A stretch of 1,311 bases of DNA from Escherichia coli. GTDB lineage: Bacteria; Pseudomonadota; Gammaproteobacteria; Enterobacterales; Enterobacteriaceae. The stretch is taken from the NCBI RefSeq assembly GCF_003334785.1, contig NZ_QOWV01000063.1; one strand, written 5' to 3'. Below are positions 383 to 1,269 of this stretch, piece by piece. The notes under the pieces were generated by a model that saw nothing but the letters and a program-made list of their open reading frames with translations, searched no databases and was not told the origin of the DNA. The translations under genes were made by a program, and so were the position numbers. The first letter of the stretch is position 1. Each line of letters starts with the position of its first letter.

Positions 383-1269
383 TGCCACTGCTGGATAAGC
401 TGCGTGAGCAGTACGGGGTCGGACCGGTATGCAGCGAACTGCATATTGCCCCGTCAACGTATTACCATTGTCAGCAACAGCGACATCATCCGGATAAACG
501 CAGTGCCCGTGCGCAGCACGACGACTGGCTGAAGAGAGAGATACAGCGCGTATACGATGAAAATCATCAGGTGTACGGTGTGCGTAAAGTCTGGCGTCAG
601 TTGTTACGGGAAGGAATCAGGGTGGCCAGATGTACAGTGGCACGTCTCATGGCGGTTATGGGACTTGCCGGTGTTCTCCGGGGTAAAAAGGTCCGTACGA
701 CCATCAGCCGGAAAGCCGTTGCCGCAGGCGACCGCGTAAACCGTCAGTTCGTGGCAGAACGACCTGACCAGCTGTGGGTGGCTGATTTTACTTACGTCAG
801 CACATGGCAGGGCTTCGTCTATGTGGCGTTTATCATTGATGTGTTTGCCGGATACATCGTGGGGTGGCGGGTCTCATCGTCTATGGAAACGACATTCGTG
901 CTGGATGCGCTGGAGCAGGCGTTGTGGGCCCGTCGTCCGTCTGGCACCATCCATCACAGCGATAAAGGCTCTCAGTATGTGTCACTGGCCTATACGGAGC
1001 GACTAAAAGAAGCCGGATTACTGGCATCAACAGGGAGTACAGGCGACTCGTATGACAACGCGATGGCTGAGAGCATCAATGGTCTTTACAAAGCGGAGGT
1101 AATACACCGTAAGAGCTGGAAAAACCGTGCAGAAGTGGAACTGGCCACACTAACGTGGGTGGACTGGTATAACAATCGACGATTGCTGGGAAGGCTGGGC
1201 CATACTCCTCCGGCAGAAGCAGAAAAAGCTTATTATGCTTCCATCGGAAACGATGATCTGGCAGCCTGA
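56..1269 (+). CDS. Predicted OrfAB transframe fusion transposase (about 404 aa) produced by -1 frameshifting near 377-379
   Basis: Inferred from the frame relationship of orfA and orfB, the A6 slippery run at the orfA stop, and the fact that the orfB frame is open for 21 codons upstream of its ATG. Fusion length is computed assuming slippage at the last AAA codon. Confidence 0.6.
374..382 (+). other. Putative programmed -1 ribosomal frameshift site (A6 run followed by the in-frame TGA stop, overlapping the orfB ATG)
   Basis: aaaaaatga at 374..382: zero-frame codons AAA(374-376) AAA(377-379) TGA(380-382). The -1 frame reads AAA(376-378) ATG(379-381) and is open back to a stop at 313-315. Producing OrfAB by -1 slippage on A-rich motifs is established for the IS3 family; the exact slip codon here is inferred. 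Confidence 0.65.
379..1269 (+). CDS. IS3-family transposase OrfB (DDE catalytic / integrase-core domain), 296 aa as an independent ORF; mainly expressed as the C-terminal part of the OrfAB fusion
   Basis: ORF 379..1269 in the -1 frame relative to orfA. Catalytic triad candidates: D136 (GAT 784-786, in WVADFTY), D195 (GAT 961-963, in HHSDKGSQY), E231 (GAG 1069-1071, in [13 protein letters not shown]), with K238 seven residues after E. The D-to-E spacing is 36 residues, matching the DD(35)E signature of IS3-family and retroviral integrase catalytic domains. Confidence 0.9.
429..444 (+). other. Short perfect hairpin (6-bp stem ATGCAG/CTGCAT, 4-nt loop CGAA) downstream of the frameshift region
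   Basis: ATGCAG (429-434), loop CGAA (435-438), CTGCAT (439-444) form a perfect inverted repeat. It lies about 50 nt after the slip site, further than typical frameshift stimulators, so its function is uncertain. Confidence 0.2.

Follow-up and report, generated by a model that had tools for sequence, protein, structure and literature searches.

The stretch of Escherichia coli DNA analysed here (the window, 1311 bases) consists of a single flanking base at position 1, which lies outside the element, followed by an element of 1310 bp. The inverted repeat begins at base 2, and the ends of the element read TGAACC...GGTTCA at positions 2 and 1311. The left terminal inverted repeat (IRL, 2-26, plus strand), which starts 5'-TG, and the right terminal inverted repeat (IRR, 1287-1311, plus strand), which closes CA-3', form an imperfect 25-nt pair in which 22 of the 25 positions (88%) are complementary. 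IS3-family elements were taken to span ~1.2-1.55 kb and to end in imperfect terminal inverted repeats of the form 5'-TG...CA-3', a description that the 1310 bp fit. The element carries two uninterrupted reading frames on the plus strand. The first, orfA (56-382), encodes 108 residues that constitute the helix-turn-helix (HTH) DNA-binding part of the transposase and are matched by HTH_Tnp_1 and transpos_IS3 (positions 1-86). The second, orfB (379-1269), encodes 296 residues plus a stop codon and lies in the -1 frame relative to orfA, this frame being open from base 316.

A megablast search of 5,426 complete E. coli genomes returned matches in 4253 of them, with a median of 4 matching places per genome and a maximum of 53. 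In 1230 records the best-matching place reaches at least 99% identity, and many records display 100% identity over positions 1-1311. The 100% identical copies include those on E. coli O157:H7 chromosomes and plasmids, at many different sites, and the element is also present in plasmid records of Escherichia, Shigella, Salmonella and Klebsiella. RefSeq labels the identical copies as [quoted passage not shown] and annotates an "AL1L pseudoknot". The IS629/IS1203/IS3411 group, which ISfinder places in the IS51 subgroup of the IS3 family, shares with the window the length of 1310 bp, the 25-bp inverted repeats, the orfA/orfB layout, the ALIL pseudoknot and the DDE-K core. No difference from this group was found, the window being the common O157:H7 sequence variant. 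IS1203 is an isoform of IS629, the most prevalent insertion sequence (IS) of O157:H7, and IS629 subtypes diverge by ~4-5% (PMC3271280). IS629-type copies of Shigella and other E. coli are 95-96% identical to the window, a distance that matches the divergence between subtypes. Taken together with the evidence presented below, positions 2-1311 are assigned, with a probability of roughly 0.96, to a complete IS629 element (IS1203 isoform) that makes its transposase as a frameshift fusion and moves by a copy-out/paste-in pathway, with positions 784-1092 forming the heart of the catalytic domain of that transposase.

The domain organisation of the two products was defined with profile models. Pfam HTH_Tnp_1 covers residues 1-87 of the OrfA-OrfB fusion (E=1.6e-10), while the HTH-like domain HTH_21 (Pfam PF13276, E=8e-18) covers OrfB residues 47-104 (517-690). 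An integrase-type catalytic core with an RNase H-like organisation (rve plus rve_3) extends over OrfB residues 127-278 (757-1212), as delineated by Pfam, AlphaFold2 and Foldseek. Within this core, Pfam rve aligns with residues 127-223 (E=3.5e-26) and rve_3/rve_2 with residues 218-278 (rve_3, E=3.8e-11). OrfB matches the NCBIfam model transpos_IS3 (NF033516) with 316.3 bits, against a cut-off of 160.

Direct translation of orfB places four candidate catalytic residues at a spacing of D-58-D-35-E, with a lysine at E+7. They are, using OrfB/OrfAB numbering, D136/D244 (GAT, 784-786), D195/D303 (GAT, 961-963), E231/E339 (GAG, 1069-1071) and K238/K346 (AAA, 1090-1092), all on the plus strand, and the D136 and K238 codons form the exact left and right limits of the span 784-1092. 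The second aspartate lies in the sequence D195-K-G-S-Q-Y200 and the glutamate closes the sequence N227-A-M-A-E231, in agreement with the motifs D-x-G-x-x-Y and N-A-x-x-E, respectively. The first-pass annotation, made from the letters alone, had claimed these four residues at the expected spacing and in the expected motif contexts, and had proposed a profile search and an alignment to an IS3-family OrfB as checks; translation, conservation and the Pfam rve match returned by the profile search all bear the claim out. Conservation was evaluated by scanning 1.84 billion cluster representatives, which yielded 63,045 relatives at E<=1e-3. In a sample of 61 core-spanning relatives with 41-87% identity, where each denominator counts the sequences that have a residue at the respective column, D136 was kept in 61/61, D195 in 61/62, E231 in 60/61 and K238 in 59/62. 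Only ~28 columns reach 95% or more conservation among the 61 relatives, and the four positions are among them. The proposal that a D...D...E...K pattern arose by chance in an unrelated reading frame is already refuted by these data, its probability being vanishingly small in view of the rve match, the number of relatives and the position of all four residues within so few conserved columns.

OrfB was aligned with the paradigms IS2 InsD, IS3 InsF and IS150 InsK of E. coli K-12. Overall identity is only 20-29%. The D, D(35)E signature and the lysine at E+7 are invariant between the three proteins and the window, as are W133, D154, G197, Y200, N227 and N265. The alignment to IS3 put forward as a check, here extended to IS2 and IS150, places the D, D and E columns in register, with no substitution at any of the four positions. 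D195 and E231 pair with InsD D198 and E234, which correspond to D306 and E342 in IS2 OrfAB numbering, previously described as the second aspartate and the glutamate of the IS2 triad (PMC3219604). The distance from the first to the second aspartate differs slightly, being 59 in the window compared with 60 in IS3 and IS150 and 66 in IS2. Gene organisation in the window is the same as in IS2, IS3, IS150 and IS911.

The AlphaFold2 model of OrfB (mean pLDDT 89.3) displays the element order b1-b2-b3-a-b4-a-b5-a, with strands predicted at residues 132-142, 145-154, 159-166, 191-194 and 215-218 and helices at residues 171-184, 198-211 and 228-242. In the model, D136 is located on strand 1 and D195 directly after strand 4, within the D-x-G-x-x-Y motif, while both E231 and K238 lie on the helix formed by residues 228-242. 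The same arrangement has been described for the superfamily, with the first aspartate on strand 1, the second behind strand 4 and the glutamate on the long helix that follows (PMC3219604). The OrfB core is predicted to adopt an RNase H-like fold. Foldseek searches with the model matched TnsB, the HIV, RSV, MMTV and PFV integrases and IstA, at E values of 1e-9 to 1e-7 and a probability of 1.00.

At the sequence level, the OrfB sequence alone gave no match in the PDB at the default threshold, and an alignment with avian/Rous sarcoma virus (ASV/RSV) integrase was obtained after relaxing the threshold or using a profile. In this alignment (phmmer and profile), D136, D195, E231 and K238 pair with D64, D121, E157 and K164 of the viral enzyme, numbered according to the full-length chain 7jn3/4fw2. 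D64, D121 and E157 are the active-site residues of ASV integrase. The aligned segments include WVADFT of OrfB, and IKTDNGSCF and AMVERANRLLK of the ASV/RSV integrase. By itself the alignment is weak, with E=0.05 for the single sequence and E=4e-4 for a 36-sequence profile, and it is the same both ways. Neither the sequence searches nor Foldseek turned up a structure of an IS3-family transposase in the PDB, which is a gap in the field and not a property of the window. Domain models, the integrase alignment, the alignment with IS2, IS3 and IS150, conservation and fold agree, and these five independent lines together identify the residues as the catalytic columns. D136, D195 and E231 are therefore the catalytic DDE triad of the transposase, and K238 is the accompanying conserved lysine.

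The window OrfB and the retroviral integrases (ASV/RSV, HIV-1 and PFV) have the RNase H-like fold in common, at ~15% sequence identity, but differ in their remaining architecture. The window transposase lacks both the zinc-binding N-terminal domain and the SH3-like C-terminal domain of the retroviral proteins. Instead, it is a bacterial enzyme of the copy-out/paste-in pathway that acquires an HTH N-terminus through frameshifting. Within the core, pLDDT falls below 50 in a single segment, the loop S-T-G-D-S at OrfB residues 221-225 (1039-1053), which connects strand 5 to the helix bearing the glutamate, and its residues G222 and D223 are nearly invariant despite the low pLDDT. HIV-1 integrase possesses a flexible active-site loop, the 140s loop, and by analogy OrfB 221-225 is probably a flexible active-site loop of the same kind.

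The breadth of these structural matches, which include TnsB, IstA and retroviral integrases, raises the question of whether the window encodes some other protein with an rve domain, such as an IS481-family transposase, a prophage or retroelement integrase or a domesticated gene. The NCBIfam IS481 model does match OrfB at E=4e-24. However, the IS481 score of 85.6 bits lies far under the curated cut-off of 224, on which ground assignment to that family was rejected, and this contrasts with the score for transpos_IS3, well above its own cut-off. Moreover, an orfA followed by an orfB in the -1 frame, a slippery site with an ALIL pseudoknot, TG...CA inverted repeats delimiting 1310 bp and 3-bp target duplications constitute the anatomy of the IS3 family. 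The proposal of another rve-domain protein is accordingly refuted already, its residual probability being very slight, and the window is retained as an IS3-family element.

The junction between orfA and orfB displays two candidate -1 slippery sites, a feature that distinguishes the window from IS2, IS3, IS150 and IS911. The sequence T_TTT_G (343-347, plus strand) was recognised from the sequence and its frames and lies 4 nt upstream of stem 1 (352-368) of a predicted frameshift-stimulating pseudoknot of the ALIL (apical loop-internal loop) type. The pseudoknot extends over positions 337-453 of the plus strand and is matched over its full length by Rfam RF01497 (121.5 bits against a gathering threshold of 50, E=9e-33); in IS911, by comparison, an elaborate stem-loop structure has been described as the stimulator. 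The second candidate is a run of six A residues followed by T (A_AAA_T, 374-380, plus strand) at the overlap of the orfA stop codon and the orfB ATG. No change was seen in the block TTATTTTGCGAAGGCGGAGTTCGACCGCC, not even in an 80%-identical relative on the Enterobacter cloacae plasmid pIMI-6 (NZ_KX786187.1; L008, 61-1368). The A run varies among relatives, reading AAAAAG in L007 and A5 in L008, and showing a TAA stop in L006.

Exact-sequence look-ups revealed that both possible fusions are on record in public annotation. The product joined at T_TTT_G (...AYF/CEGG...) is named "MULTISPECIES: IS3-like element IS1203 family transposase" and occurs on 394 contigs, while the NCBI entry for the product joined at the A6 run (...LWKK/MMPLL) occurs on 158 contigs; the records thus disagree on the position at which orfA and orfB are joined. 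A RefSeq join at the A6 run was considered and dropped, as both junctions are on record and the IS1203-family name accompanies the T_TTT_G junction. Both fusions comprise 404 residues, differ at 11 linker residues and have one catalytic core in common, and the catalytic residues are D244, D303, E339 and K346 in either of them. It is improbable that the two fusion products cooperate in a mixed transpososome in which only one is catalytic, an idea that Chen and Hu are said to have raised for IS629 in 2006. The working transposase is the 404-residue OrfA-OrfB frameshift fusion, not OrfB alone. In IS1203v/IS629, orfB carries the DDE signature and OrfAB is the transposase, and excision of IS629/IS1203v requires a transposase with an unmutated DDE motif (review of the IS-excision enhancer, bioRxiv 10.1101/2023.06.07.543989). 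The statement in PMC5771124 that cites Chen & Hu 2006 reports that IS629 OrfB alone lowers transposition.

Based on these features, a transposition mechanism can be proposed. The sequence anatomy shows orfA and orfB to be combined into the 404-aa OrfAB through a programmed -1 frameshift. The ribosome would slip at T_TTT_G (343-347) and/or on the A6 run (374-379), with the ALIL pseudoknot (337-453) as the stimulator. The fusion couples an N-terminal HTH, presumed to recognise the 25-bp inverted repeats, to the DDE core. By analogy with the superfamily, the three carboxylates may coordinate two Mg2+ ions that serve both hydrolysis and transesterification; the lysine at E+7 may contact the conserved CA-3' end of the element. 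In HIV-1 integrase, K159 contacts the terminal CA. Following the paradigm of IS911, IS2 and IS3, one end of the element would be nicked to give a 3'-OH, which would attack the same strand just outside the other end and generate a figure-of-eight. Replication of the figure-of-eight would yield a circular IS copy, which would then be inserted with a 3-bp target duplication, completing a putative copy-out/paste-in cycle.

The first-pass annotation had also read the intact triad as support for an active enzyme rather than a decayed copy. As a statement about the window copy this is reasonable, on account of the intactness of the whole element, identical copies at multiple sites, target duplications and pN/pS values; as a deduction from the triad alone it is insufficient. 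An intact triad is necessary, but not sufficient, for activity, as illustrated by the E. cloacae relative L008. In this copy orfB is split into two frames (373-1050 and 1060-1326), and the loss of one base in the A run, leaving A5, breaks the -1 relation of orfA and orfB. The possibility that the orfB stop in L008 was an alignment artefact was rejected, since the listing of open reading frames displays a genuinely split orfB. L008 also lacks a transposase annotation. L008, apparently a decayed copy, has nonetheless kept each of its D, D, E and K codons, and therefore the triad alone cannot decide on activity.

In the case of the window, evidence from the whole element, whose inverted repeats are complete, and from its other copies is available. 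Copies identical to the window reside in unrelated contexts, comprising the rclB/rclC spacer, traG, traN, prophage genes and an IS66-family element. Target duplications were read at seven copies elsewhere, the window itself containing a single flanking base, and were expected to be 3 bp, occasionally 4 bp, for the IS3 family. The 3-bp direct repeats TAC, AAC and TTA flank three identical or near-identical copies among the seven inspected (L002, L003 and L007), while the remaining four (L001, L004, L005 and L006) have no matching 3-bp direct repeat. At L004 both neighbouring genes are truncated. Rather than inactivity, the missing duplications and the L004 truncations suggest that insertion was followed by IS-mediated deletion or by recombination between copies. 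Values of pN/pS of ~0.09-0.18 were obtained for both reading frames in comparison with relatives of 95-96% and 80% identity, and by this sequence-based measure both frames are under purifying selection.

It could be argued that the window represents a dead copy in which the triad is intact and a missense change elsewhere, defective ends or a defective frameshift signal abolish transposition, the triad then being uninformative on activity. The codons retained in the split orfB of L008, which make the triad alone weak evidence, and the imperfect match of the inverted repeats (22/25) are compatible with such a state. However, the mismatches in the repeats recur in the 25-bp inverted repeats of relatives, both reading frames are uninterrupted and the ALIL match is full-length. 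In addition, copies that match the window at every base occupy many distinct sites in chromosomes and plasmids, and some are flanked by fresh 3-bp duplications. Exact OrfB is present on 425 contigs, with the two fusions on 394 and 158. A dead copy is therefore considered very unlikely, and the window is very probably a complete, mobile copy of IS629/IS1203.

There is nothing unusual about the DDE region itself. The assignment of the catalytic core is correct but ordinary, and the core is already known as part of a thoroughly described element of which the window is a member, not a variant. In E. coli O157:H7 and Shigella, few insertion sequences are as well catalogued as IS629/IS1203, and both its DDE signature and its frameshift-made transposase have been published. 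The analysis is of value for annotation: it allows the window to be recorded as a complete IS629/IS1203 copy that is very probably mobile, with its catalytic residues numbered as in the real enzyme (D244, D303, E339 and K346). As a general caution, an intact triad does not by itself separate live from decayed copies.

A 16-mer within orfA (223-238, GGATACCGGGGGCGGT) matches the inner part of the IRR (1293-1308) at 14 of 16 positions and is 81% complementary to the IRL (5-20). By a rough estimate this similarity is only marginally above chance; the 16-mer could offer the transposase an internal binding site or, as RNA, pair with the 5' end.

One of the identical copies (L001, 1-4311; E. coli O157:H7 PV15-279, NZ_AP018488.1) is located inside the IS66-family element ISEc8, between tnpB and a truncated transposase gene. 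Approximately 1 kb downstream of this copy lies a gene annotated as a [quoted passage not shown] (WP_000233452.1), which might correspond to IEE, the IS-excision enhancer of the PrimPol type known to act on IS629.
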